Assembly: GCA_026005055.1 (NCBI GenBank)
Contig: BPKI01000001.1
Coordinates: 2,371,608-2,435,607, forward strand
Direction of reading: 5' to 3'
DNA from: Lysobacterales bacterium
Lineage (GTDB): Bacteria; Pseudomonadota; Gammaproteobacteria; Xanthomonadales; BPKI01
Length of the DNA stretch: 64,000 bases
The notes under the pieces are model-generated. The model was not told where the DNA came from, ran no database searches, and worked only from the letters and a program-made list of their open reading frames with translations. A program made the position numbers and the translations under genes. Below, in pieces: positions 1,489 to 24,532 of this stretch. Numbering within the stretch: the stretch's first letter is position 1; the number at the start of each line of letters is the position of its first letter.

Positions 1489-2187
1489 TCAGCCGCCTCC
1501 CGCCGGCGGTGTACGCAGCAACGCGGTGATGCCCCGTGCCGTCTCCTCGATCCGGGCACGACCCACGGCCTCGTCTGCCGTGCTCGGTCCGGGAAGCCGC
1601 AGGAACCAGCCGGCGCCGATCTTCTCGCCGTCAGGAAAACGCCGCACATCGATGCGCAAGCTCGCGCTCGCAGCCGACCCTCGGGACGGCTCTGCGCTCA
1701 CCGCGAGCAACCAGTCGGCGGCGCTCTGGTGGCGCGCCAGGATCCGCGGCAAGTCGGCATCGCCATCCGCGCTGCCGAGCTCGATGACCGTCCATCCTTC
1801 CCTCGCCAAGGCCTCCGAAAGGATCCTGCACGCAGCCCCGGCGAGCTCGGCATCGCCGAAGCAAAGCAGGGCGATCCGCCCGCCGCCACCGGCCCCTCGC
1901 GCTTCCGTCCGGCTCGCATCGCGCGCTTGACTGTGCTCAGCCTCAGGCTTCGCCGTCGCATCCGCGCGCGGCGCGATCGGTCGCCCCTCCGACACCGCGG
2001 CGATGCGCTGCTGACGCTCCGCGCCAGCCGCACGCACCGTCCACTCCAAATGCTCGCGGTACGCCATCCAAAACAGGGGGATCGACAACAGGAAAGGCGA
2101 AAAACGCCAATCGCTAGCTGAACCAGGTCTCAGCATTCCCTGCCCAAATCCGTACGGTCCTTGATGGAACGAACGCTCCTCCTCCAT
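1489..2187 (-). CDS. Membrane-anchored protein with a TolB-N-like C-terminal domain (outer copy, called B1 here)
   Basis: 232-aa ORF with a short hydrophobic segment (FSPFLLSIPLFWMAY) and an acidic/Ala-rich linker. The C-terminal domain reads RIALLCFGD..GWTVIEL..DWLLAVS..LRIDVRRFPDGEKIGAGWF. It is clearly paralogous to the C-terminus of 2267-3160. The start is uncertain; an alternative Met lies at 2136. Confidence 0.6.
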   Translation of the reverse strand: MEEERSFHQGPYGFGQGMLRPGSASDWRFSPFLLSIPLFWMAYREHLEWTVRAAGAERQQRIAAVSEGRPIAPRADATAKPEAEHSQARDASRTEARGAGGGGRIALLCFGDAELAGAACRILSEALAREGWTVIELGSADGDADLPRILARHQSAADWLLAVSAEPSRGSAASASLRIDVRRFPDGEKIGAGWFLRLPGPSTADEAVGRARIEETARGITALLRTPPAGGG

Positions 2188-2266
2188 GAAGCCAAGGCAT
2201 CAGGGCGACTCGCCCGTTCTCCTGAGAAGCGCCGCCGCTCCGCGCCGACCATCACCTGGGAGCGCT

Positions 2267-3160
2267 TCAGCCTGAATTTCTTCCGAGCAGACCGAAAACC
2301 TGTGCAGCAATGTCGCGATATCGGGACACCGGAACCGCATTACCTTCCAGTCTCTGCTCATCAATCCGCATGAACCATCCGGCACCCATGCGTTCACCAC
2401 TCGGCATCCGTAGAACCTCGATCCGGAAATTTCCCTTGCGATTGCCTGGTAAACCCTCGCCTTGCGCTGTCAAGATCGCCAGGAAATCAACCTCGGACCG
2501 ATAACGCGCCGTCAGACGTCCAAAGTCAGGCGCATTCATTTGATCCTCGACCTCGAGTGCGATTACCGTCCAGCCCTGATCCCGTCCTGCTTGCTCCAAC
2601 GACTCCACTGCCGTTGCCGTCCAATCTCGCGCGCCGTACGCGAGGATGCCCAACTTGCGCCCTCCGCCCGTCCTCTTCGCTTGTTGATCCTTCTCCAACG
2701 CGGCAGCATGCGGCAAACGGCTCGCCTCGCCGGCACCCTGAGCCGGCCCCTTCTCCGCCATCGGAAACCTAACCACACTCGATCGCTCATATTCCCCACC
2801 TTTATTCTGTTGATGCCCGGCCACAGGCACCCCACCCTCCCCCTTTGCTGTTCCATGCCTCGGAGTCGTCACCCCACTACCCACGTTCCGAACTGGCACA
2901 CCAATCTCCGCCTTGTGACCAAACGAATCCCCCTCGACCGTCCTTTCACCACCGCCAGATTCGCTCACGGCGGCCGATGCTAAAGCTTTCTCCGCCGTAG
3001 CTTTCCGAATGGCTTGCACTTCGATCCAAAAGGTCACGAGCCAAACTAAACCCAAAAGGACTGGGGTTAAAGTGGTAATCGCAAAACCAATGGGCAAGAC
3101 TTTCGAATAATCCATTCCTACCGTGGCACCGCTCGCCTCTCTGTTCCCATCCGGAACCAT
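2267..3160 (-). CDS. Membrane-anchored protein with a TolB-N-like C-terminal domain (inner, low-GC copy, called B2 here)
   Basis: 297-aa ORF with TM VLPIGFAITTLTPVLLGLVWLVTFWI and a long Gly/Glu/Lys-rich linker. The C-terminal domain reads KLGILAYGA..GWTVIALE..DFLAILT..FRIEVLRMPSGERMGAGWF. The ATG at 3160 lies 3 nt after the upstream gene's TAG, with a GGAGAGGGGGG Shine-Dalgarno inside that gene's 3' end. Confidence 0.65.
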   Translation of the reverse strand: MVPDGNREASGATVGMDYSKVLPIGFAITTLTPVLLGLVWLVTFWIEVQAIRKATAEKALASAAVSESGGGERTVEGDSFGHKAEIGVPVRNVGSGVTTPRHGTAKGEGGVPVAGHQQNKGGEYERSSVVRFPMAEKGPAQGAGEASRLPHAAALEKDQQAKRTGGGRKLGILAYGARDWTATAVESLEQAGRDQGWTVIALEVEDQMNAPDFGRLTARYRSEVDFLAILTAQGEGLPGNRKGNFRIEVLRMPSGERMGAGWFMRIDEQRLEGNAVPVSRYRDIAAQVFGLLGRNSG

Positions 3161-3163
3161 CTT

Positions 3164-4459
3164 CTAGCCCCCCTCTCCGCGCATTGCCAACGCCAACTCC
3201 CGAATCAGCGCGAGATAGCGCTCACGGGGATACTGTGGATCGATCATGCGTATCCTAAGCAACATGTCGGGATGCGTCGAAAAAATACCGCGAGCAAAAT
3301 GAACTAACCTATACCATAGCCATTCAAACGCCCCGAACAAAGTGACCCTTAGACGACCCATCTTTGCCCAAAACCCCCTGCTGCGATAATGTCCTCGTTT
3401 CAAAACGATCCATTCTTTAGCACTGTAATACCTAGCAACCATATCCGACGCCGCAAGCGGATAGTCGATCATCAGCGCCGCGTAATTCGGATTTTCCGCT
3501 AGCGGGGTTGGCCGACGCGCAAGAACAATTTTTTCAAAAGCGCTGACCAATGCCTGTGGCTGACGGGTAAACTGTACCGCTGCCAGATCGGCGCGAAACT
3601 CCTGTCGCCGCGAATGCACAAAGTACAATATATGCGCGCCAACAACGCCCACAAAACCGATCATGCGCCACAATAGCGCCAGCAACCAAAAAGGCGCCAA
3701 TATAAGCATCAAGCCGAGGCTCACGCCCGCACGTGTCGACGGAACTTCAGTTCGACTAACGACAGTGCCATCCCGAACGTAGACCACTTCGTACGACGGT
3801 TTCGAAGCAATGATTGCAGCAAGGAAGAGGTATATCTTATTGAGAACCTTAGACAACCAGCGCCCGACAGAATACAGTGCGTGAAGGCCGGAAGAAACCG
3901 CTAAAAGATAAGACCCATCACGCGTGTCACCATAACGCAAATGTCCGAATTCATGCGCCATTACCGCTCGCAATTCGTCATCCGTCAAATGCTCCAGGGC
4001 CCCCGAGGTCGCGGCAACGGCTGATCCGTCCAGGTACACGCCACTGGCGAAAGCATTGATCGTTTGGTCGGGAATTATATATACGTCTGGCTTCGCGGGA
4101 AGATTGGCAGCCAAAGACACCTCTTCAACGATCCGTAGGAGCCGTTTTTGCTGCGGGTCATTCGTCCCAGGTTCTATCTTTTGACCGCCCAGCTCGACCG
4201 CCACTGCTCCGCCATCGGCGGCAATCTTGCTCATCGTCCAAAACGCGACGCCGCCAACGATGAGTCCAGCGATAATCATCGACAAGGGAGGAGCGATGAG
4301 AAAAATATCTGGGAACGCCAGCCCAATGATCGTCGAAATGAACGGCATGATGGCGAGAACGGTCAGATTGACGATGAACAAAAAGGCGATGACCGTGATC
4401 AGCGCCTGCCGGCTACGACGCCTCTGATCGGTGAAAAAGTCGACCGTCACTCGTTGCAT
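3164..4459 (-). CDS. M48-family (HtpX-like) integral-membrane zinc metallopeptidase (inner, low-GC copy, called A1 here)
   Basis: N-terminus MQRVTVDFFTDQRRRSRQ followed by 2 TM segments. HEFGHLRYGD provides the HExxH motif, two further TMs follow, and then RRQEFRADLAA (third-ligand Glu region). The start at 4459 was chosen over 4576 because of an AGGGGGGAG Shine-Dalgarno and the parallel with the paralogue. Confidence 0.8.
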   Translation of the reverse strand: MQRVTVDFFTDQRRRSRQALITVIAFLFIVNLTVLAIMPFISTIIGLAFPDIFLIAPPLSMIIAGLIVGGVAFWTMSKIAADGGAVAVELGGQKIEPGTNDPQQKRLLRIVEEVSLAANLPAKPDVYIIPDQTINAFASGVYLDGSAVAATSGALEHLTDDELRAVMAHEFGHLRYGDTRDGSYLLAVSSGLHALYSVGRWLSKVLNKIYLFLAAIIASKPSYEVVYVRDGTVVSRTEVPSTRAGVSLGLMLILAPFWLLALLWRMIGFVGVVGAHILYFVHSRRQEFRADLAAVQFTRQPQALVSAFEKIVLARRPTPLAENPNYAALMIDYPLAASDMVARYYSAKEWIVLKRGHYRSRGFWAKMGRLRVTLFGAFEWLWYRLVHFARGIFSTHPDMLLRIRMIDPQYPRERYLALIRELALAMRGEGG

Positions 4460-4922
4460 GGCTCCCCCCTTTGGTGCGCGACTTCCAATCGGACTTTCCC
4501 CTCCACTCGCTGAGCACGGCCTGCAGGCTGGCTCCAATGCGAGAGACGCTAACAGCATCAGACTAGAGAGCAGCATGACTCTCTGTCAACTATGCGAATG
4601 ACGAAGGGTCCTTCAAAACGTCGCCTCGGCGAAGTGTTTTTGCAATTTGTTGCATCGCAGCTGGGTCGTCGTCATTGTCGCGCTGGTACACGCTCCTTCA
4701 CGTCAGGAGCCGATGATTTTTCCCTGCGGCCGGTGTTCGGCCATCGCTCGCGGCGGAGCAAGGGTGCGAACGATCGCATCGCTTGCGATCGTCGATCAAC
4801 GTGAGGAATTTGGCAGAGTCCGAGGAAGGAGGCGTCCCTCTGGCGCTGGATGCATCGAGCCATCGGCGACTTGCCTTCGATGCGAGCCAACGGTCGAGCG
4901 CGAGATGCAGAGGGCCCCGTGG

Positions 4923-6089
4923 TCACCAGCGATTCCGCGTTGGCAACCCGCCGAAACCGCGGCCGCCCGCGTCCTCCCAGGCGAGCTTCAGCCATTCGAC
5001 CAGGGAGAAATAGCGCGCCATGGCCGTTTGCCCGAGCACCCCGGCGTCGATCAGGAAATGGGCATATTCCGATCTCGGCGCGGCGCGAGGAGGCAGGCGG
5101 TGGAAAACGATCTTCTCGAATAGCCCGACGATCGCCGCGGGGTTGCGCACCATCTGCAGCGCGTAGGCATCCGCCCGGTACTCCATGGTCCGGCGACCGG
5201 CCATCACGAGGAGTCTCGCCGCCACCGCGCCGATGCCCGCGAGCAGGCGCCAGGACCAGGCAAAAAGCCACGGAAAGATGAGCAACAAGGCGGCCGCGCC
5301 GGAGGAGGTGGGCTCCTCACCACGGGTTCTGATGGGCGCCTCCTCGGCCCGTGCGCGATGCCAAACCCAGTAGGCCGCGCTCCAATCGCTCGGTCGGATG
5401 GAACGCCGGACGCCGAAGTCGTCGGACTTCACGACCGAGAACCACAACCACCGCGTGACCGCACGCCCGACACGGTAGAGCGCGGATAGGCCGCGGGCGG
5501 CGGCGAAGAGATAGCTGCTGTCGCGGCAGTCACCGTAGCGAAGATGTCCGAACTCGTGCGCGACGAGCGCCGTGAGCTCCTCCCGCGAAAGCTGCTCGAG
5601 CGCACCCACGGTGACCCCGACCGCGAGGCGGTCGATGCGCACCCCCGCCGCCAAAGCATTGATCGACCCTGAGGGCAGCACATAGACGTCGGGAAGATAA
5701 GGCATCTGCGAGGCGATGGTGAGCTCCTCGACGACGTTCTGAAGCACCCGCGCCTGTCGCCCGTCCTCGTAGTCCTCGAGCGGAATCCCGCCGAGATCAC
5801 GGCAGACCGATCCACCGTCCCGCCTCAGCCGGTAAAAGGCCAGCAGCGTCGCGAAAGCCACCAGCGCGCCGACGATCAGCACGCTCAACGGCCAAACGTA
5901 GTTGATGAGGGGTATCGCCTTGCGATCGAAGTCGGCGAACAGCAGGACGAAAACCATGATGAAGACCGCGAGGACGAAGGTGATCGCCCACACCGTCACA
6001 TTCACCAGCACGAAGAAGAGGAGCGCAAGGAAAATCGCTTGCCGATTGCGCTGTCGCTGGATCGCGAAGAAATCCGCCGTCGCACGCAT
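4923..6089 (-). CDS. M48-family (HtpX-like) integral-membrane zinc metallopeptidase (outer copy, called A2 here)
   Basis: MRATADFFAIQRQRNRQ followed by 2 TM segments, HEFGHLRYGD, further TMs, and RRTMEYRADAYA. It is paralogous to 3164-4459 along its whole length. The start at 6089 is supported by a GGGGGGAG Shine-Dalgarno. Confidence 0.8.
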   Translation of the reverse strand: MRATADFFAIQRQRNRQAIFLALLFFVLVNVTVWAITFVLAVFIMVFVLLFADFDRKAIPLINYVWPLSVLIVGALVAFATLLAFYRLRRDGGSVCRDLGGIPLEDYEDGRQARVLQNVVEELTIASQMPYLPDVYVLPSGSINALAAGVRIDRLAVGVTVGALEQLSREELTALVAHEFGHLRYGDCRDSSYLFAAARGLSALYRVGRAVTRWLWFSVVKSDDFGVRRSIRPSDWSAAYWVWHRARAEEAPIRTRGEEPTSSGAAALLLIFPWLFAWSWRLLAGIGAVAARLLVMAGRRTMEYRADAYALQMVRNPAAIVGLFEKIVFHRLPPRAAPRSEYAHFLIDAGVLGQTAMARYFSLVEWLKLAWEDAGGRGFGGLPTRNRW

Positions 6090-6278
6090 GCTCCCCCCTT
6101 CGTCCTGGCAGCGAGCGCTCCCCGAGAGGCGCCGTTCCGCATGGCCTACCCGAGGAATCGTAGTCGCCGGTCCGCCTGCGATCAACGAGGCAGGACCGCA
6201 GGAATCGCCGCTCCTCGGCAGCCCCCCAAAAAAAGGGGCGCCCGGATGGGCGCCCCTCAGCCGATCGCTGGTGAGGAA

Positions 6279-14956: not shown

Positions 14957-15760
14957 ATGCGCATCCCGATCAAGAGCTTCGCTCTCATCCTGCTCGCCCT
15001 CCTCCTCGGCGCTTGCGCCGGCCGGGACAAGGATCGGGCCGACACCATGCCGGTCGAGGAAATCTATGACCTCGCCAAGCGCGCCCTCGACCGCGGCAAC
15101 TACGCTCGCGCCGAACAGGAATACAAGCGCCTGATCGCGCGCTTCCCCTTCGGTCCCTACAGCGAGCAGGCGCAGCTCGAGCTGGCCTATGCGCAGTACA
15201 AGATGGCCAAGTCCGACGAGGCGCTCTCGACCATCGAGCGCTTCATCCGCACTTACCCGCGGCACGAAAAGGTGGCCTACGCCTACTACCTCCGGGCGCT
15301 GATCAGTTTCGACCGCGAGTTCTCTTTCCTCGATCGCTGGCTCGGTCGCCCGGCTTGGACGCGCGATCTCGAGCATCTCAGGCGCGCCTTCAGCGATTTC
15401 GGGGAGCTCATCCAGCGCTTCCCCGACACCGAGTACGCCTTGGATGCACGGCAGAGGATGATCTATCTGCGGAATGTCCTCGCCCAGTCCGAAATCGAGG
15501 TCGCGAATTTCTACCTGCGCCGGGCCGCATGGGTCGCAGCCGCCAATCGCGCCCGCTACGTCATCGAGAACTACCCGCAGGCCCCGCAGAATGCCGACGC
15601 GCTCGCCATTCTCGCCTATTGCTATGAGCGTCTCGGCGAGAAGCAGCTCGCCGAGGACACGCGCCGGGTGCTCGAGGGCAATTTCCCGAATCATCCTTTC
15701 CTCTCCGGCGGCTGGCCGCGCGAAAAGAGCCTCTGGCAGCGCTTGATCCCCTTCGGCTGA
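14957..15760 (+). CDS. bamD: Outer membrane protein assembly factor BamD
   Basis: Lipoprotein signal LLALLLGAC. TPR-like sequence EEIYDLAKRALDRGNYARAEQEYKRLIARFPFGPYSEQAQLELAYAQYK is typical of BamD/YfiO. Confidence 0.9.
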   Translation: MRIPIKSFALILLALLLGACAGRDKDRADTMPVEEIYDLAKRALDRGNYARAEQEYKRLIARFPFGPYSEQAQLELAYAQYKMAKSDEALSTIERFIRTYPRHEKVAYAYYLRALISFDREFSFLDRWLGRPAWTRDLEHLRRAFSDFGELIQRFPDTEYALDARQRMIYLRNVLAQSEIEVANFYLRRAAWVAAANRARYVIENYPQAPQNADALAILAYCYERLGEKQLAEDTRRVLEGNFPNHPFLSGGWPREKSLWQRLIPFG

Positions 15761-15769
15761 GGCGCCGCT

Positions 15770-16390
15770 TCAGCCGCGCGCGAGACGACGATAAAGCCGG
15801 TCGAGCTCGGCCACCCTCAACGCGAGCGCCTCGCAGCCTCCGCCGTTGTCGATCACATCGTCGGCCAGGGCAAGCCGCTCGGCCCGGCGGGCCTGAGCGG
15901 CGATCATCGCCTCGGCGAGCGTGGCGTCGATCCGGTCCCGCGCGAGCAAGCGCTGCCGCTGCACCTCTTCGGGCACATCCACCACCAACACCCGATCGAT
16001 CCAGGGATACCGTCCGACCTCGGCCAGAAGCGGGATCACCACCAGCACGTAGGGCGGATTCGAGCGAGCGGCGGCGGCCAGCGCCTCGTGCAAGTGCCGT
16101 TCGATGCGGGGGTGGAGGATCGCCTCGAGCCGGCGCCGCGCCTCCGGGTCGGAAAACACCCGCTGCCTGAGCGCCGCTCGATCGAGTTCGCCTGCGGGCG
16201 TGAGCACGGCTCGACCAAAGGCTTCGGCCACCGCCGCCAGACCCTCGCTTCCCGGGACGACCACCGCGCGCGCCGCCTCGTCGGCATCGAGTACGGGTAC
16301 GCCGCGCTCGGCGAAGAGGCGCGCCACCGTGCTCTTGCCGGAAGCGATCCCGCCCGTGAGGGCGACCACCAGAGGTCGAGGCCCAGTCAC
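15770..16390 (-). CDS. coaE: Dephospho-CoA kinase
   Basis: [34 protein letters not shown].., 206 aa. This is the 3' part of the track's 620-aa ORF 15770-17632. The GTG start at 16390 overlaps the cysNC stop (GTGA). Confidence 0.85.
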
Positions 16391-18264
16391 GACGCAAGAC
16401 CTTCGAGGAGATATTGCACGATGCGCTCGGCGAGCTCCTCTGGCGCTTCGAACGAGGCCGGCAGATGGATCTCGGGCGCCTCGGGCGGCTCGTAGGGGGC
16501 ATTGATTCCGGTGAAGTTCGGGATCAGCCCGGCGCGTGCCTTGGCGTAGAGCCCCTTCGGATCGCGCGCTTCCGCGAGCGCAAGCGGCACATCGACGAAG
16601 ACCTCGATGAACTCGCCCGGCGGGAAGAGGGAACGGGCCATCGCCCGATCGGCGCGATAAGGCGAGATCAGGGCGACCAGCACGATCAAGCCGGCATCGC
16701 ACATGAGCTTGGCGACCTCGGCCACGCGCCGGATGTTCTCCACCCGATCCTCGGGGGTGAAGCCGAGGTCGCGATTGAGGCCATGGCGGAGATTGTCGCC
16801 ATCGAGCAGCATCGTGTGATAGCCGAGCGCATGAAGCCTCTGCTCGAGCCGATCGGCGATCGTGGATTTGCCCGAAGCGGGAAGACCGGTGAACCACAGG
16901 CAACGGGGCTTTTGCCCTTTGAGCCGAGCGCGGGCCTCGCGGCCGACCGCCAGCGGCTGCCAGTGGATGTTGCTCGCCCGCCGCAAGGCATGCGCGATCA
17001 CGCCTGCACCGACCGTATCGCCGCGCATCCGATCGATCAGGATGAAAGCACCGAAATGCCGCTCCTCGGCGAAAGGCGCGAAAGGCAACGGGCGCTCGCA
17101 AGCGAGATGCACGTGCGCGAGCTCGTTGAGCTCGAGCCGGCGCGCGGCAAGCGATTTGCCGGTTTCGACATCCACCCGATAGCGGATTTCGGTGATCTGC
17201 GCCTCCACCTCCGCACTCGCCAAGCGCAGGCGATAGCGCCGCCCCGGGATCAGAGGCTCCTCGCCCACCCACAGCAGCTCGGCCGCGAACTGATCGGCCA
17301 CCGCCAGCGGATCGCGCGCCGCGGCGATGACATCCCCGCGACCGAGGTCGCGTTCGTCGCCAAGCCGCACCAGCACCGCCTCGCCGGGGAAGGCGCGTTG
17401 TCTCGGCTCGAATCCGCAGCGAATCTCGGCGATCGCACTGCGCTGGCCCGAGGGCAGCAGGACCACGGGATCGCCGACGGCGAGCACGCCGCCAGAGAGC
17501 GTGCCGGCGTAGCCGCGAAAATCCCCCTCCGCGCGCAGGACCAGGCTCACCGGCAGGCGCGCCCCCCGCGGCGGCGGAGGCTCGGGTTTGAACTGGAGGA
17601 GGAAGGAGAGCAGGCTCGGCCCCTCGTACCAAGGCATCTTGCCGCTTGCGCTCGCAACGTTCTCGCCTGCGCGGGCGGCGAGCGGGATCGCCACCAGCCG
17701 AAGCTTCAGCGCCTCGGCCAGCGCCGCGATCGGCGCCACGAGCTCGCGGAAGCGCGCTTCGTCATAGTCCACGCGGTCCATCTTGTTGACCGCCAGCACC
17801 ACCTCCCGCACCCCGAAGAGCGCGGCGATGCGCAGGTGGCGAAGGGTCTGCCGCGTCGCCCCCCGGCTGGCATCGAGCAGAAGCACGGCGAGCTCAGAGC
17901 GCGAAAGACCGCTCGCCATGTTGCGGGTGTACTGCTCATGGCCCGGGCAGTCGGCGATGATGAACATCCGCTCGCCCAAGCGGAGGTAACGCCAGGCGAC
18001 GTCGATGGTGATGCCCTGCTCGCGCTCGGCCTCGAGTCCGTCACAAAGCCAAGCCCACTCGACCTCGCCTTCCGGCATCCCGCGCCGCCGGCATTCGGCG
18101 AGAAGCGACTGCCACTGATCCTCCGGTACCGCCCCGGCCTCCCACAGCAGGCGCCCGAGCAGCGTGCTCTTGCCATCATCCACCGAGCCGACCAGCGCGA
18201 GGCGAAGCGATCGCCGAACGGCTATGGATCTCGCGGCCGGGCTGTGCACGGGCAGCGCGCTCAC
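16387..18264 (-). CDS. cysNC: Bifunctional sulfate adenylyltransferase subunit 1 / adenylylsulfate (APS) kinase
   Basis: GTPase domain [15 protein letters not shown] and DCPGHEQY. C-terminal APS kinase [37 protein letters not shown] start at 18264. Confidence 0.9.
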
Positions 18265-18908
18265 GGTCTACGGCCCCCTGGCGGATGACCCCTACAACCC
18301 TTTCGGTTGGCACAGCGCTTTCGCAGCTCGTCGAAGAAGCGCTTCGCCCAGGGGGAGGCGGCCGCGACCTTGGCCGGGTTGAGCTTTTGAAGGAGCGAAA
18401 ACCCATCTCCGGTCTTGTCATAGCCCCGTTGCCCTGCCGCGCCATCGAGGGCCTCGAGGACGTTCGCTTTGGGAATCTGTTCGATTGCCGTCGCGCTTCC
18501 CGGCGGTTGTTGTCCACAGCGAAAGTGGCGTTGGACGACGCCCCAGTCCGCCACGAACCAGTTTTCCATGCATTCGACCATCAGGTGACAATCCGGATTG
18601 CTGCGATGAGGCGGAACCTTCATCCCAAGCGAGCTCAGAAAGCCCCAAGGATCGAAAGCACCCGCTGCGCTGCCGCAATACTGCGGAGGAACGGACTGTT
18701 CCGAATCGACCAAGACCAAGGCTTCATCCCCGTCCTTCTTGGCTCGGCCATAGTCATCAATCGTGTTTTGACGATTTCCGCTGGCCACGACGCGGGGCAT
18801 ACAGCCTGCCAATCCCGCGTTTCGCAGCAGCTCGGACATCGCGCGTCGCAGTTGCATGTTTTGGCGACGACCGTGGCCGCCGCCTTCCACGAATAGCTTG
18901 GTTACCAT
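18261..18908 (-). CDS. DUF4276-like protein with Toprim-like signatures
   Basis: [13 protein letters not shown].. supplies a strand followed by Glu. ALVLVDSE is DxD-like. [13 protein letters not shown] follows. ATG 18908 lies 1 nt after the ATPase TAA, so it is preferred to the track start at 18968. Its TGA overlaps the cysNC GTG. The family name is from memory and has not been searched. Confidence 0.6.
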
Positions 18909-20146
18909 CGATTCCCTCCAATATCGCCTCGGCTCCAGAGCTCCCCGAGGGAATAACGATCGAGCCACCCCGAGAGGGCTTGCGCGTCGAGGCGGCGTAC
19001 CGAGGTTCCCTCATCCTCGCGCTCCACCACCAGGATTCGCTCGGGGTCCTCGCCGAGGGCATCGACCAGGGCTTCGGAATGGGTGGTGATGATGAGCTGC
19101 GTGCGCGTCGAAGCCTCGACCAGCATTTCGGCCAGTTCCCCGACGAGATCGGGGTGCAGGCCCAGTTCCGGTTCCTCGATACAGAGCAACGATCCTGGAT
19201 CAGGATGACACAGGATCGCCACCAGGCTGAGGAAGCGCAGGGTGCCGTCGGAGAGCCGACTCGCGGGGATCGCCCGACCGTGCTCGATGAGCACGAGTTG
19301 CACCGACCCCGAAACCAATCGGACCTCGAAGTCGTCGAGGCCCGGGTAAAGCTGACGCACGCGCTCGAGAACCTTTGCACGAGCCTCGGAACTTCGCAGG
19401 TTGCTGAGCACATGCGCGAGGTTGCTGCCATCGGGCAGCAAGCGGTCGCCCGGAAGATCGGCTTTGTGCTCGAGTCGCTGCGGCGTCATCCGGCCGAAGT
19501 GCCATTCGCGATAGATGCGCACGCGTTCAAGCTGGCTGGCGACGAAGGCGAGCTCGGGATAATGGTCGGGGTCCCGGCGCTGGGCGAGGATCGATTGGGT
19601 AGGGTCGATGTCCTCCGGGCGCAACTTGCGCAAGCGCCCCGGGCGTTCTTCTCCGCGTTCGCCGACACCACCGCCCTCCTCGGCAAAGCCTCGGACGTTG
19701 AGCAAGGCGTGCCGACCATCGAAGGTGTAGAAGCGGTAGGGTTCGGGGAAGCCGGAGTAGGCCTGCTTGTTCTCGAGCCGCTCCTCGAAGATGCGGAAGC
19801 GGCCGTCCTCGTCGCGGCCGAAGCGCAGGCGATGGCGCATCGGCATCTGCGTTCGGCTGCGCGGATTGACGAATATCGCCTCGATCGTCGCCTCTGGTGG
19901 CCCCAGACGGTCGCCTTCCCCGAAGTCGCTGCGTCCTCCTTTCCACAGCCAATCGGAAAGATTGCCGCCGGCGCGCAAGGGCTCAACCAGATTCCGCGGC
20001 GCATTCGCCAGAAGCTCGATGACGTCGATGAGATTGGACTTGCCGGCACCGTTCGGACCGATCAAGACATTAAGCGGTCGCAAATTGAGTTCGAGGCCCT
20101 TCGGAGGAAAACTGAGCAGGCCGGCGATACGCAATGACTCAAGCAT
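18902..20146 (-). CDS. ABC-type (AAA_15/AAA_21-like, SMC/OLD-related) ATPase
   Basis: Walker A LIGPNGAGKSNLIDVIELL, then LSDGTLRFLSLVAIL, Walker B LLCIEEPELGLHPD, and LIITTHS (H-loop). ATG 20146 with a GAGGG Shine-Dalgarno is preferred to the TTG at 20152. Confidence 0.8.
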   Translation of the reverse strand: MLESLRIAGLLSFPPKGLELNLRPLNVLIGPNGAGKSNLIDVIELLANAPRNLVEPLRAGGNLSDWLWKGGRSDFGEGDRLGPPEATIEAIFVNPRSRTQMPMRHRLRFGRDEDGRFRIFEERLENKQAYSGFPEPYRFYTFDGRHALLNVRGFAEEGGGVGERGEERPGRLRKLRPEDIDPTQSILAQRRDPDHYPELAFVASQLERVRIYREWHFGRMTPQRLEHKADLPGDRLLPDGSNLAHVLSNLRSSEARAKVLERVRQLYPGLDDFEVRLVSGSVQLVLIEHGRAIPASRLSDGTLRFLSLVAILCHPDPGSLLCIEEPELGLHPDLVGELAEMLVEASTRTQLIITTHSEALVDALGEDPERILVVEREDEGTSVRRLDAQALSGWLDRYSLGELWSRGDIGGNRW

Positions 20147-20168
20147 CGTCAAAGCCCTCGTAATGCCT

Positions 20169-21068
20169 TCAAAAATACCCCTCCCGCTTCTTCCGCTCCA
20201 TGCTCGCCGCCTCGTCGTGGTCGATGAGTCGGCCCTGCCGCTCGGAATGGCGAGTGGCGAATTGTTCGGCGATGAGCTGATCGAGGTCCTCGGCCGCGGA
20301 GGGGATGGCGCCGGAAAGCGGCCAGCAGCCGAGGCTCCGGAAACGCACCTTGATCATCTTCGCCGGCGGGAAGCGATCGGCATAGCGTTCATCATCGAGC
20401 ACGATGAGCGCGCCCTGGTGCTCCACCACCGGTCTTTCGCGCGCGAAGTAAAGCGGCACCACTTCGATCCCCTCGCGTTGGATGTAAAGCCAGACATCGA
20501 GCTCAGTCCAGTCCGAGAGCGGAAAGACGCGCATGGTCTCCTCAGGGCCCAGGCGGCCGTTCAAGAGCTCCCAGAACTCCGGGCGCTGGCGGCGCGGATC
20601 CCAGCGCTGGCCAGCATGGCGCAGCGAAAAGATGCGCTCCTTCGCCCGCGAGCGCTCTTCATCCCGGCGTGCGCCCCCGATGGCGGCATCGAAACCATGC
20701 TGAGCCAGCGCGAGCTTGAGCGCCTCCGTCTTCATGACTTCGGTGTGAAGAGCGGCGCCATGATCGAGAGGATTGATGCCGCGCCGGATGCCCTCTTCGT
20801 TGCGGAAGACGATGAGCCTGAGCCCGAAGCGCGCCGCCATCGCGTCGCGGAAGGCGTACATCTCGCGGAACTTCCAGCCGGTGTCGATATGGAGCAGGGG
20901 GAAAGGGATGGGCGCCGGATGGAAGGCCTTGCGCGCGAGATGAAGCAGCACCGAGGAGTCCTTGCCGATCGAATAGAGCAGCACCGGCCGGCGGAACTGC
21001 GCCGCTGCCTCGCGCAGGATGTGAATCGCCTCCGCCTCGAGACGATCGAGATGATGCAGTTCACTCAT
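20169..21068 (-). CDS. cysD: Sulfate adenylyltransferase subunit 2
   Basis: [62 protein letters not shown] shows the PAPS-reductase-like ATP-PPase fold typical of CysD. ATG 21068 is preferred to GTG 21077. Confidence 0.9.
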
Positions 21069-21129
21069 CGCCGCCACTCCGGGAGGGGCGATTCTACGGC
21101 CGGGCAGGCCGCCTGCCGGTCACGAATCC

Positions 21130-22176
21130 TCATGCCGCCATGCCGGCGCGCCAGTCGAGATACCACTGCGCGAAGCGGCGCACCCCCTCCTCGACCGGCG
21201 TTTCCGGGCGAAAGCCGATCAGCGCCGCGAGCGCCGAAGCATCGGCCTCGGTCTCCTCCACGTCCCCAGGCTGGGCGGGAAGAAGCTCCCGCTGCGCCTT
21301 CCGACCCAAAGCCGCCTCGAGCAGCTCCAGGTAGCGGGTGAGTTCCACCGCCCGCGCGTTGCCGAGGTTGAGCAGGCGGTAGGGAGCCACACCGCTGCTT
21401 TTGGGATCGGGCCTGCGCGGATCCCAATCCGGATCGGGACGAGGGCTCAGTGGCGCCAAGGCGAGCAAGGCCGCGATCACATCATCCACGTAGGTGAAGC
21501 TCCGCCGGTGGCGGCCGTGGTTGTAGAGCGGCACGGGCCGACCATCGAGGATCGCTTCGGCGAAGCGGAAGAGCGCCATGTCCGGACGGCCCCAGGGACC
21601 GTAGACGGTAAAGAAGCGGAGCACGGTCACGGGAATCCCGAAAAGATGGGCGTAGGCATGCGCCATCGCCTCGCAGCCTTTTTTGCTCGCGGCGTAGAGC
21701 GTGAGCGGATGGTCCGTGCCCTGATCCTCGCGAAACGGCAGGCAGCGGTTCGCGCCATAGACGCTGCTCGTGCTCGCCAACAGCAAATGCCGCACCGGAT
21801 GGCGGCGGCAGCCCTCGAGCACATGCAAGCTGCCCACCACGTTGCTTTGCACGTAGGCTTCCGGATTCTCGGCGGCATAGCGCACCCCGGCCTGCGCGGC
21901 GAGGTGAAAGACGATCTCCGGTCGGTGCTCGGCGAAGGCCGCCGCCACGGCCTCGCGATCGGTGAGATCGGCCTGAAGGTGCGTGAACGCGCCGGCTTCG
22001 GCGATCCAGCGCAAGCGCGCGCGCTTGAGCTTGGGGTCGTAGTAAGGGTTGAGATTGTCGAAGCCGATCAGCTCGGCGCCAAGCTCGAGCAAGCGCCGGG
22101 AGAGATGCGCACCGATGAAGCCGGCATGGCCGGTGACCAGCACCCGGCGCCCGCGCCAAAACTCAGAGCCGGCCAT
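21130..22176 (-). CDS. NAD-dependent nucleotide-sugar epimerase (UDP-glucuronate/UDP-GlcNAcA 4-epimerase-like)
   Basis: VLVTGHAGFIGAHLSRRLLELGAELIGFDNLNPYYDPKLK and YAASK, an SDR extended-family pattern. It overlaps the upstream dehydrogenase by 14 nt. Confidence 0.85.
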   Translation of the reverse strand: MAGSEFWRGRRVLVTGHAGFIGAHLSRRLLELGAELIGFDNLNPYYDPKLKRARLRWIAEAGAFTHLQADLTDREAVAAAFAEHRPEIVFHLAAQAGVRYAAENPEAYVQSNVVGSLHVLEGCRRHPVRHLLLASTSSVYGANRCLPFREDQGTDHPLTLYAASKKGCEAMAHAYAHLFGIPVTVLRFFTVYGPWGRPDMALFRFAEAILDGRPVPLYNHGRHRRSFTYVDDVIAALLALAPLSPRPDPDWDPRRPDPKSSGVAPYRLLNLGNARAVELTRYLELLEAALGRKAQRELLPAQPGDVEETEADASALAALIGFRPETPVEEGVRRFAQWYLDWRAGMAA

Positions 22177-23449
22177 CGACCGCCTCGCGCGGGAGGACGC
22201 CCTTCACGTCGAAGAGCACGGCGCCTGGCTTGCCGAAGGCGCGGATCCGCTCGGGGGGGCACTCGCGGTACTGGCGATGCGCCACCGCCAGCACCACCGC
22301 ATCGAAGGCGCCCTCCGGCGGCTCGGCGAGAAGCTCGAGCCCATACTCCCGCCGCGCCTCCTCGGGATCGGCCAAGGGGTCGTGCACCGCGACTTCGATG
22401 CGATAACCCCGCAACGCCTCCACCATGTCTGGAATACGGCTGTTGCGAATGTCGCGCACGTTCTCTTTGAAGGCGAGACCGAGGATCAGCGCCCTCGCCC
22501 CCACCGGATGGATGCCGCGGGCGAGCATGAGTCTCAGCACGCGCTCGGCCACGTAAGCGCCCATGCCATCGTTGATCCGCCGCCCGGCCAGGATGAGCTG
22601 GGGATGATGGCCGATTTCCTGGGCCTTGTAGGTGAGGTAATAGGGGTCCACGCCGATGCAATGCCCGCCGACCAAACCCGGCCGAAACGGCAGGAAGTTC
22701 CACTTGGTGCCCGCCGCCTCCAGAACCTCGAGCGTATCGAGCCCGAGCTTGTGAAAAAGGATGGCAAGCTCATTGACGAGCGCGATGTTGAGGTCGCGCT
22801 GAGTGTTTTCGATCACTTTCGCCGCCTCCGCGACGCGGATGCTCGAGCAGCGGTGAAGCCCTGCCCGCACCACCTCGCCGTAGAGCGCCTCCATGCGCGA
22901 GAGCGCCGCCCCGCTCGATGCCGCGATGAGCTTGACCACGTTGTCGAGGCGGTGCTCGGGGTCGCCGGGGTTGATCCGCTCGGGGCTGTAGCCCACGGCA
23001 AAGCTCGGTCCCTGGCCCGCACACCCTTCGTAGCGAAGGCCCGAGAGCTGTTCGAGGACGGGCACGCAGACCTCTTCGGTGCAACCGGGATAGACCGTGC
23101 TCTCGTAGATCACGAGGCTGTCGGGGGTGAGCGCCCGCCCGACGGTTTCGCTGGCGCGAAGCAGGGCAGTGAGATCGGGTCTTTTCGCCCGATCGACCGG
23201 AGTTGGAACCGCGATCACGAACAGGGAATGGCCCCTCAGCGCCTCAGGATCGCTGCTCAAGCGAAGCTGCTTCGCCTCGGCGAGAGCCTCCGGCGCACAC
23301 TCGCCGCTTCGATCGATGCCTCGGCGAAGCTCCGCGATCCGCGTGGCATCGAGGTCGAACCCGAGCGTCGGCCGCTGTCGCCCGAAGGCCAGGGCCAAAG
23401 GCAGGCCGACGTAGCCAAGCCCGATGACCGCGACCGCTTCCTTCTCCAT
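22163..23449 (-). CDS. Nucleotide-sugar 6-dehydrogenase (UDP-glucose/GDP-mannose dehydrogenase family, TviB/WbpO-like)
   Basis: VAVIGLGYVGLPLALAFG Rossmann motif, GGHCIGVDPYYL catalytic Cys region, 428 aa. Confidence 0.85.
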   Translation of the reverse strand: MEKEAVAVIGLGYVGLPLALAFGRQRPTLGFDLDATRIAELRRGIDRSGECAPEALAEAKQLRLSSDPEALRGHSLFVIAVPTPVDRAKRPDLTALLRASETVGRALTPDSLVIYESTVYPGCTEEVCVPVLEQLSGLRYEGCAGQGPSFAVGYSPERINPGDPEHRLDNVVKLIAASSGAALSRMEALYGEVVRAGLHRCSSIRVAEAAKVIENTQRDLNIALVNELAILFHKLGLDTLEVLEAAGTKWNFLPFRPGLVGGHCIGVDPYYLTYKAQEIGHHPQLILAGRRINDGMGAYVAERVLRLMLARGIHPVGARALILGLAFKENVRDIRNSRIPDMVEALRGYRIEVAVHDPLADPEEARREYGLELLAEPPEGAFDAVVLAVAHRQYRECPPERIRAFGKPGAVLFDVKGVLPREAVDGRL

Positions 23450-23527
23450 CACCCGCCACCCGAAGCCGTGAGCACTTTAGTGTCGCCGATTTCCCACCGG
23501 CCTGGCCCGGCGTACACTGCCCGCCCC

Positions 23528-24532
23528 ATGTCCGCCCCCAACGCCCGCGAAGCCGAGCGCCACGCCTTTCTCGCTCGCTACCTCAGAGGGCCCTTTCGCC
23601 TCGCGCCCGCCTCGGAGGATGCGAGCTTTCGGCGCTACTTCCGCGTGCATCGCGACGGTTGCAGCCTGATCCTGATGGATGCCCCGCCGGAACGGGAGGA
23701 CGTGCGGCCGTGGCTCGATGTTGCCGAGCGGCTTCGCGCCGCAGGCTTGCACGCGCCCGCCGTGGAGGCTGACGACCCCGAGGCCGGGTTCGTGCTGATG
23801 GAGGACCTCGGGAGCACGCTCTATCTCGCCCGCCTCGCCCCGACCACGGCCGATGCGCTCTATGGCGAGGCGATGGCGGCGCTGCGTCGGCTTCAGCTTT
23901 ACGCCGATGGCTCTGGCCTGCCGCCTTATGACGAGATGCGGCTCCAGGCCGAGCTCGATCTGCTGCCTGAGTGGTTCCTCGCTCGGCATCTCGGTCATGC
24001 CGTGGGGGTCGAGGAACAGGAGCTGCTCGCCGAGGCCTTTCGCCAACTCATCGCCTCGGCGCGCGCCGAGCCCCAGGTCTTTGTCCATCGCGACTACCAC
24101 AGCCGCAACCTGCTCATCGTGCCGGCGAACGGTCCTGGCATCGTCGATTTCCAGGACGCGGTGATCGGCCCTTTGAGTTACGACCTCGTCTCACTGCTTC
24201 GCGATTGCTACATCGCCTGGGCGCCTCAAGCCGTGCGCCGCTGGGCGGAGCAGCATCGGCTGCGCCTTGCTGCGGAAGGTTTTCCGGTGCCGGACCGCGC
24301 CGACTTCGAACGTGCCTTCGATTGGATGGGGCTTCAGCGCCACCTCAAAGTGCTCGGCATCTTCTGCCGCCTGTGGTACCGCGACGGCAAGCCCGGTTAT
24401 CTCGGCGACTTGCCGCGGGTTTTCGCCTATGTCGAACAGGTGGCGAGCCGCTATCGCGAATTCGCCCCGCTGCTCGCTTTGCTCCGGCGCGCCATCGACG
24501 AACGCGACCTCACCCGTCCATGCGCGCCCTGA
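23528..24532 (+). CDS. amgK: Aminoglycoside-phosphotransferase-fold kinase, probably anomeric MurNAc/GlcNAc kinase
   Basis: ASFRRYFRV..LILMDAPPE..HRDYHSRNLL..IVDFQDA, a kinase-fold Brenner/DFQ-like motif. It overlaps murU by 13 nt. It is the 3' part of the track ORF 22049-24532. Confidence 0.7.
   Translation: MSAPNAREAERHAFLARYLRGPFRLAPASEDASFRRYFRVHRDGCSLILMDAPPEREDVRPWLDVAERLRAAGLHAPAVEADDPEAGFVLMEDLGSTLYLARLAPTTADALYGEAMAALRRLQLYADGSGLPPYDEMRLQAELDLLPEWFLARHLGHAVGVEEQELLAEAFRQLIASARAEPQVFVHRDYHSRNLLIVPANGPGIVDFQDAVIGPLSYDLVSLLRDCYIAWAPQAVRRWAEQHRLRLAAEGFPVPDRADFERAFDWMGLQRHLKVLGIFCRLWYRDGKPGYLGDLPRVFAYVEQVASRYREFAPLLALLRRAIDERDLTRPCAP

Follow-up and report, generated by a model that had tools for sequence, protein, structure and literature searches.

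HEC-01 ("Hma-embedded candidate 01") combines an ABC ATPase with a TOPRIM-like protein (Payne et al., bioRxiv 10.1101/2024.01.29.577857) and has been reported to be nested in Hma, BREX, DISARM and restriction-modification (RM) operons (bioRxiv 10.1101/2024.01.29.577857). Here we analyzed a 64,000-nucleotide (nt) stretch of a Lysobacterales genome (GenBank assembly GCA_026005055.1, contig BPKI01000001.1, positions 2,371,608 to 2,435,607 of the forward strand), in which a divergent pair of this type lies exactly between cysD and cysNC, the two host genes of sulfate activation. The whole stretch is called the window below, coordinates are window positions, and all genes named at the junction are located on the minus strand.

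Other described systems show a related division of labor. PARIS is a split pair of an ABC ATPase (AriA) and a DUF4435 Toprim nuclease (AriB), in which the ATPase scaffold holds the nuclease until a trigger frees it and tRNA is cut. In OLD proteins and in GajA of the Gabija system, the ATPase and the Toprim domain are fused in one chain. The Septu and retron-associated PtuA-PtuB systems combine an ATPase with a separate nuclease, and the effector PtuB is an HNH nuclease. A 2025 paper on Menshen in Nucleic Acids Research treats DUF4276 as a Toprim member and reports a homologue, Mad4, in the MADS system.

Identification and family assignment of the pair

The pair was assigned to the HEC-01 type, for which full-length matches of both products to PADLOC profiles are decisive. 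The first product, a 414-residue ABC ATPase (HEC-01A; 18902..20146), matched the HEC-01A model PDLC04177 with an E-value of 2e-147 (residues 1-414 on positions 4-393 of 393). The second, a 215-residue DUF4276 protein (HEC-01B; 18261..18908), matched the HEC-01B model PDLC04201 with an E-value of 1.7e-43 (residues 3-199 on positions 4-200 of 202). It also matched Pfam DUF4276 (PF14103) over positions 2-191 of 192 (9.7e-13; 49.2 bits, above the cut-off of 30.2), which bears out the DUF4276-like label that an earlier, sequence-only reading of this DNA had given it. No other family was hit by HEC-01B in PADLOC (E ≤ 1) or in Pfam.

HEC-01A is an ABC ATPase of the SMC/Rad50/OLD/PtuA type and a putative sensor or motor. 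Its Pfam match is AAA_21 (3.2e-36), with AAA_15 and SMC_N also found. All 74 columns that are invariant in an alignment of 43 sequences are kept, including the Walker A, signature, Walker B/D-loop and H-loop motifs (G30-x-N-G-x-G35-K-S37, L298-S-D-G-T302, E324-E-P-E-L-G-x-H-P-D333 and T355-H-S357). The AlphaFold (AF2) model (mean per-residue confidence, pLDDT, 80.5; predicted template modelling score, pTM, 0.83) shows the ABC head fold. Foldseek retrieved an SMC head (4i99; 1.2e-13, TM-scores 0.56/0.70), PtuA (9nnb), OLD (6p74) and Rad50, all at about 1e-13. By sequence, the nearest solved proteins were OLD, PtuA and AriA, the best match in the PDB being Thermus OLD (6p74; 5.6e-07), and a PHROGs search returned unnamed ATPase families and nothing else. 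Pfam, the HEC-01A profile, the motifs and Foldseek thus agree with the earlier description of this product as an SMC/OLD-like ABC ATPase, and every protein motif quoted for the two products was found in the translations. Two insertions rich in Gly, Glu and Arg were observed in the ATPase (residues 74-82 and 155-166), which are of low complexity, have pLDDT values below 50, and are missing in at least 80% of 41 more distant aligned homologues.

The four genes follow each other in the order cysD, ABC ATPase, DUF4276 gene and cysNC, as first described. The upstream host gene cysD (21077..20169) encodes the small subunit of sulfate adenylyltransferase (463.6 bits with NCBIfam NF009214, whose cut-off is 413), and its TGA stop lies at 20171-20169. 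It is followed by a leader of 22 nt (20147..20168) with a Shine-Dalgarno-like GAGGG at 20158-20154, 8 nt before the ATPase start codon (ATG at 20146); the ORF (open reading frame) list and the sequence agree with the previously noted gap and GAGGG. The ATPase TAA (18904-18902) had been placed 1 nt away from the ATG of the second gene. The actual arrangement is a 7-nt overlap (ATGGTAA), in which the DUF4276 gene (ATG at 18908) starts over the ATPase stop codon. At the other end, the TGA of the DUF4276 gene (18263-18261) overlaps the GTG of cysNC (18264-18262) as a 4-nt GTGA. The downstream host gene cysNC (16387..18264) encodes the fused large subunit of sulfate adenylyltransferase and adenosine 5'-phosphosulfate (APS) kinase (786.5 bits with NCBIfam NF004035, whose cut-off is 715).

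Comparison with known systems

This locus is a new, divergent HEC-01 member at an unusual address, and the kind of system is already catalogued. It shares with the HEC-01 entries of PADLOC-DB v2 the same two families, the A-then-B order, the common strand, the same overlap, and the promoter-less, co-oriented placement inside another operon. The overlap is a trait of the family: it measures 7 nt in 52 and 4 nt in 14 of the 71 related loci (66/71 together). On the other hand, the window cassette is only 45-53% identical to its nearest other members, lies in an operon for sulfate activation rather than in one of the Hma, BREX, DISARM or RM type, and carries two lineage-specific insertions in its ATPase and an extended tail in its DUF4276 protein. 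The pairing is less novel than the earlier reading had assumed, since it already has a name, HEC-01, under which it can be searched, and a DUF4276 homologue, Mad4, is on record in MADS.

PARIS, another split pair of an ATPase and a Toprim-type effector, offers the best mechanistic template. HEC-01A matches the PADLOC AriA model (1.6e-36) and the sequence of the solved AriA (1.5e-05). However, the HEC-01A models far outscore the AriA model, and HEC-01B has no detectable similarity to AriB/DUF4435, for which reason membership in PARIS was rejected. The ATPase is also related to that of OLD and GajA, with Thermus OLD (6p74) ranking top by sequence and among the top by structure, and GajA is the sole defence protein near the top of the weak fold matches of HEC-01B. 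Membership in OLD/Gabija was rejected as well: ATPase and Toprim-like protein are two genes here, no UvrD-like partner or other helicase is nearby, and the similarity of HEC-01B to the OLD/GajA Toprim domains is not statistically supported. As for MADS, HEC-01A matches Mad3 (PADLOC mad3, 4.3e-25; NCBIfam MAD3, 4.3e-26), and HEC-01B belongs to the family of which Mad4 is a reported homologue. The 92 bits of HEC-01A, however, remain far below the NCBIfam MAD3 cut-off of 420, and no methylase or other mad gene occurs within 8 kb, which excluded this system. Of the solved proteins, PtuA is one of the nearest to the ATPase in structure and in sequence, and Septu likewise pairs an ATPase with a separate nuclease, but its effector is an HNH nuclease and not a DUF4276 protein.

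Evidence for insertion into an empty site

To obtain comparable sites, one genome per GTDB species with CysD was collected, resulting in 80 loci, 79 of which also contain cysN. In all 79, cysN directly follows cysD, and no homologue of HEC-01A or HEC-01B was found within 8 kb. The closest genome is a Lysobacterales metagenome-assembled genome (L001) with CysD and CysNC 88% and 76% identical to those of the window. It is syntenic on both sides with approximately 77% nucleotide identity (blastn), and this synteny ends at window position 20168 and restarts at 18209. Its junction reads TTCTGAacATGAGCGCC, that is, 2 nt ("ac") separate the cysD stop from the cysN start. The GTG of the window cysNC is homologous to the ATG of L001, the N-termini VSALP and MSAVP being aligned. 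From its leader through the ATPase and DUF4276 genes to its tail, the inserted segment (18265..20168) therefore comprises 1904 nt in place of these 2 nt. Because all 79 related sites are empty and the syntenic L001 has a junction of 2 nt, we conclude from these alignments that the cassette is an insertion, probably acquired horizontally, and not an ancestral member of the operon. The sequence-only reading had located the pair precisely at this junction and proposed comparing occupied with empty sites in related genomes, and both points have held up. The same 79 empty sites led to the rejection of an ancestral role in sulfate activation. In two loci from Halopseudomonas/Pseudomonas (L024 and L060), cysD and cysN are spaced by about 565-575 nt, compared with up to about 270 nt elsewhere, a distance that could not hold the cassette.

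The arrangement is no artefact of assembly, because at least seven independent assemblies are identical across the junctions, namely JGI 3300038964, NCBI GCA_017880035.1 and at least six Logan assemblies of different runs; an assembly chimera was thus rejected. In one contig of the same strain (L099; GCA_017880035.1, JAEDZT010002081.1), cysD, cysNC and an AbgT transporter gene are in fragments. They are intact in the Logan and JGI assemblies, and the fragments are probably frameshift errors in assembly rather than pseudogenes. Besides, five independent Logan contigs of the window's lineage end within 17999-18007, in cysNC about 260 nt after its start, a hint of a polymorphism or of a repeat shared with another genome in the samples. 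With regard to the insertion mechanism, the window copy showed neither terminal inverted repeats nor a target-site duplication nor a tandem repeat, no tRNA or Rfam family was detected, and no integrase or transposase gene occurs within 8 kb.

Inheritance and selection in a sister lineage

A sister lineage, diverged by 6-9% from the window, was found in Logan runs SRR277300xx (contigs L095-L098 and L103). Its layout is the same: cysD, a 22-nt gap, the ATPase gene and the DUF4276 gene. The leader differs by 7 substitutions, with GAGGA replacing GAGGG, and the two insertions of the ATPase are present. Synonymous divergence (dS) from the sister lineage is 0.233 for cysD, with a ratio of nonsynonymous to synonymous rates (omega) of 0.075 (P = 1.4e-16 for synonymous excess), and 0.245 for the ATPase gene, with an omega of 0.18 (P of about 1e-15). 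The dS values of the two genes do not differ (Fisher P = 0.83). Equal dS and the same 22-nt junction indicate that a single old insertion took place before the lineages split and was followed by vertical descent.

For the DUF4276 gene, dS is 0.08-0.11, omega 0.38-0.46, and P = 0.026. Its dS is only a third of that of the ATPase gene because of a low-divergence block of about 500 nt (18950-18451), which is 96-100% identical between the lineages, compared with 82-92% in its flanks. This block spans the 3' end of the ATPase gene and codons 1-150 of the DUF4276 gene, and hence the catalytic core of HEC-01B, in comparisons with L095-L098 and L103. Its left breakpoint varies: the bin 18950-18851 is 100% identical in L096 and 90% in L095 and L097. 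The block is most simply explained by recent homologous exchange, or by a sweep of the allele of the DUF4276 gene. Judged from these codon comparisons, both proteins are under purifying selection and have been kept intact since the insertion; neither gene is interrupted by a stop codon, and the residues that are invariant in the two family alignments are all retained. Variation within the lineage is of no use for selection tests, as its contigs are 100% identical except for one single-nucleotide polymorphism (SNP), N116H in HEC-01B.

The junction between the DUF4276 gene and cysNC has changed between the two lineages. In the window, HEC-01B ends in a lineage-specific tail of 16 residues (18264..18311), which is read from spacer DNA, ends in the GTGA overlap, and is missing from the other 43 sequences of the alignment. 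Between the DUF4276 gene and cysNC, the sister lineage carries an additional 16-nt tandem unit, TGTAAGGGGCGTAGGG, which shifts the frame. Its HEC-01B ends at 207 residues with the tail VNCKGRRV*, the TAA preceding the GTG of cysNC by about 40 nt. This G-rich unit is present in two copies in the sister lineage (L103, 1860-1930) and as one diverged copy in the window (18270-18311). Because the sister gene stops about 40 nt before cysNC and the tail is missing from the 43 other sequences, the GTGA overlap is a lineage-specific by-product of spacer indels and not a conserved design. The overlap behind the proposed translational chaining to cysNC is present in the window and is not conserved in the sister lineage. 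All four other Logan contigs of the sister lineage end right here (18306-18335), which suggests heterogeneity in the copy number of the unit.

The DUF4276 protein and the Toprim superfamily

HEC-01B keeps the motifs E8-GGG, D68-S-E70, C107-HLM and M114-E-x-W, which are invariant in an alignment of 44 sequences. In its AF2 model (pLDDT 93.1), strand beta1 (4-7) is followed by E8, a helix, strand beta2 (39-42) with G44, a second helix, strand beta3 (63-68) with D68-S-E70, another helix, and strand beta4 (107-110). All 44 sequences share E8, G44 and D68/S69/E70. A conserved acidic residue right after beta1 is also found in the Toprim superfamily, and D68-S-E70 after beta3 is a DxE variant of its DxD motif. 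In this predicted model, the order of secondary structure elements and the acidic motifs fit the Toprim pattern, and the searches brought no statistical confirmation. The earlier Toprim-like call is thus consistent with motifs and topology, while the Foldseek, profile and hhalign tests did not reach significance. In addition, a Foldseek search of the viral structure library gave no Toprim match for HEC-01B, and a PHROGs search gave no match to it.

One contig of the same strain as the window (L100, 8001-8648) carries the N116H substitution. This nonsynonymous SNP is the sole difference in 16.6 kb, and it adjoins the invariant E115 of the ME-x-W motif.

Genomic contexts of related cassettes

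The nearest relatives of the cassette (45-50% identity) are part of BREX-like operons. Those of HEC-01B (44-45% identity) lie between pglXI and brxHI of type 3 BREX and are separated from their neighbors by 5-33 nt. We further carried out a neighbor census of 80 metagenomic loci, which yielded 45 upstream and 55 downstream neighbors. Sixteen of the 45 upstream neighbors are DUF6079 proteins (BrxC/PglY-type). Downstream, DNA methylases, Fic/SLFN proteins and helicases are enriched, and the remainder is heterogeneous. No cys gene was found among these neighbors, and no other case involves cys genes.

Some relatives are located outside defence contexts. In two marine metagenomic loci (L144, 3768-6929, and L147), the pair lies on the same strand as its neighbors, with an NAD-dependent epimerase gene 44 nt upstream and a nucleotidyl-transferase gene 17 nt downstream, a second non-defence embedding, this time among sugar-nucleotide genes. 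Another pair (P0013) is found beside cobalamin and tryptophan operons. In L117, L118 and L120, transposase genes lie on both sides of the pair, a DUF772 one upstream and a YhgA-like one downstream, and might provide the cassette with a mobile context. It is conceivable, if doubtful, that HEC-01 pairs are promoter-less modules that colonize any junction between co-transcribed genes by a mechanism leaving no recombinase, repeats or duplication. If embedding were such a property of the cassette, the pairs would live on the transcription of host operons, the cysD/cysNC and L144/L147 cases would be the visible non-defence tail of this behavior, and "guilt by embedding" would partly reflect insertion preference and not function.

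Expression and relation to sulfur metabolism

The cassette lies in a co-directional run consisting of a udg-like gene of the UDP-glucose/GDP-mannose dehydrogenase family (23452..22163, Pfam), an NAD-dependent epimerase gene (22176..21130, Pfam), cysD, the two cassette genes, cysNC and coaE. The gaps along this run through cysNC are -14, 52, 22, -7 and -4 nt, and a short gap precedes coaE. From this layout, co-transcription of the cassette with cysD and cysNC is a reasonable inference, and the transcription unit from which it is expressed probably includes the dehydrogenase and epimerase genes as well. Terminator-like sites occur at the chance rate only.

The sequence-only reading went further in describing an essential assimilatory operon under sulfur-starvation control. 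Neither description found support: the genes share a co-directional run with sugar-nucleotide genes and have no recognizable promoter, and there is no cys regulatory evidence, of the CysB type or otherwise. Considering these neighbors, cysDNC may serve assimilation, sulfation dependent on 3'-phosphoadenosine 5'-phosphosulfate (PAPS), or both. The raxP/raxQ genes of Xanthomonas are cysD/cysNC homologues of this kind.

Base composition

The G+C content of the cassette is 62.8%, compared with 67.8% for the window, which places it among the lowest 5% of 1.9-kb windows. The dip reported earlier is therefore real. Its size was overstated: 13% of the 60-nt lines of the cassette, and not most of them, fall in the range of 53-58%, and 81% reach at least 60%. 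G+C at third codon positions (GC3) is 0.76 in the ATPase gene and 0.66 in the DUF4276 gene, in comparison with 0.81-0.89 in neighboring genes, and the cassette shows the worst codon-usage fit to host genes among the nine genes tested. This composition is atypical of the host and agrees with an insertion.

A second island of low G+C was observed at 2000-5000 (down to 52%, compared with 68%), which is probably another acquired segment. It codes for a 470-residue M48 peptidase (4576..3164, minus strand) and for a 297-residue ORF without a match in Pfam and PADLOC searches. A second M48-family ORF (6185..4923) adjoins it.

Possible function of the cassette

The reading we prefer, with a probability of roughly 0.6, is that the pair is a defence module made of an ATPase sensor and a nuclease effector, following the logic of PARIS, OLD and Septu and now expressed from a housekeeping operon. 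A promoter-less HEC-01-type cassette would have been gained horizontally and would have entered a single time, at the exact point where the cysD stop meets the cysNC start, in an ancestor shared by two Lysobacterales lineages of hot springs. It would be transcribed within the host run from the udg-like gene to coaE, with translation of the ATPase gene coupled to that of the DUF4276 gene and selection keeping both proteins. By analogy with PARIS, OLD/Gabija and Septu, we infer that the ATPase may form a complex with the DUF4276 protein and act as a nucleotide-dependent sensor or scaffold that restrains a putative nuclease. A phage or another foreign-DNA cue would lead the ATPase to free or activate this nuclease, and the resulting cleavage of nucleic acids would amount to a defence of the abortive-infection type. 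The BREX location of the closest relatives, the census neighbors, and the literature on HEC-01 and DUF4276 point to this link with defence. PADLOC, Pfam and the empty sites are all consistent with the core of the earlier proposal, an acquired conflict-type pair consisting of an ABC ATPase with a Toprim-like (DUF4276) protein at the cysD/cysNC junction.

Several observations weigh against a defence role. No defence gene lies within 8 kb of the window cassette, whose neighbors are cysD and cysNC; embedding in defence operons is the way in which the family came to light and is no rule for its detection. HEC-01 was one of two among nine tested candidates that gave no protection in E. coli against the phages tried (bioRxiv 10.1101/2024.01.29.577857), and for no family member alone is a defence phenotype known. 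The earlier statement that the ATPase-DUF4276 pairing lacks an experimentally defined function is still fair, this being the only published assay of HEC-01. The best relevant Foldseek match of HEC-01B in the PDB is GajA (E-value 0.15, probability 0.60), which is not significant, and a profile search of PDB sequences returned nothing above noise (best match MS2 coat protein, E-value 0.3). An hhalign comparison with the Toprim region of P2 Old put the VEG and G motifs in the correct register at an E-value of 0.37. A search for homologues to make an Old-Toprim profile recovered just five near-identical fragments. Moreover, purifying selection on HEC-01B is modestly significant and is confounded by the recombined low-divergence block, and the scan for promoter-like sites in 15700-23700, which found none, covered the sigma-70 consensus only.

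The absence of protection in the published HEC-01 assay would be expected of a selfish hitchhiker or addiction module, with proteins kept intact to the benefit of the element itself. It would persist either because it is wedged between two genes whose products are needed together, with most deletions of it also harming cysD or cysNC, or because the pair acts like a toxin-antitoxin system. The lack of an own promoter and the tight junctions on both sides also agree with this explanation, as do the Pfam label of AAA_21 ("putative AbiEii toxin, type IV TA system") and the related cassettes in non-defence operons (L144 and L147) and between transposase genes (L117, L118 and L120). However, the insert comes without a mobility gene, a terminal repeat or a target duplication, an omega of 0.18 over a dS of about 0.24 in the ATPase gene exceeds what positional protection alone would give, and the location of about a third of the relatives within BREX-like systems speaks for a role linked to defence. 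We regard a purely selfish element as the main, though rather unlikely, alternative.

The tight, co-oriented spacing with cysD and cysNC and the retention of the pair through the divergence of the lineages might also be taken as signs of a host role in sulfate activation or with the sugar-nucleotide genes, such as regulation or quality control of CysD-CysNC. Such a role is highly improbable, since the cassette is missing at all 79 other cysD-cysN loci, its homologues occur mainly in BREX-like contexts with no cys gene in the census, and neither an SMC-like ATPase nor a Toprim-like protein suggests sulfur chemistry. Equally hard to maintain is the view of the pair as a decaying remnant without function, or as a chimera of assembly or binning. 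GC3 is partly ameliorated, the two ATPase insertions are of low complexity and low pLDDT, and the tail of HEC-01B is altered, all of which could be expected of a remnant. But both frames are intact in two lineages with omega below 1 and with all catalytic-type residues kept, and the junctions are identical in at least seven independent assemblies from different samples. Both possibilities are largely refuted by these data.

Implications

What is new here is the address of the pair, together with evolutionary evidence of its upkeep in the absence of a partner defence system. The locus represents a clean natural experiment, with a dated single insertion, an empty site in a syntenic relative, two descendant lineages and measurable purifying selection, outside defence islands. 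This argues for a function of the pair that is useful, or at the least self-preserving, alone and without a BREX or Hma partner, and the locus shows that such cassettes are able to embed in housekeeping operons. It also provides a compact and naturally stand-alone HEC-01 variant for a family whose one tested member lacked a phenotype.

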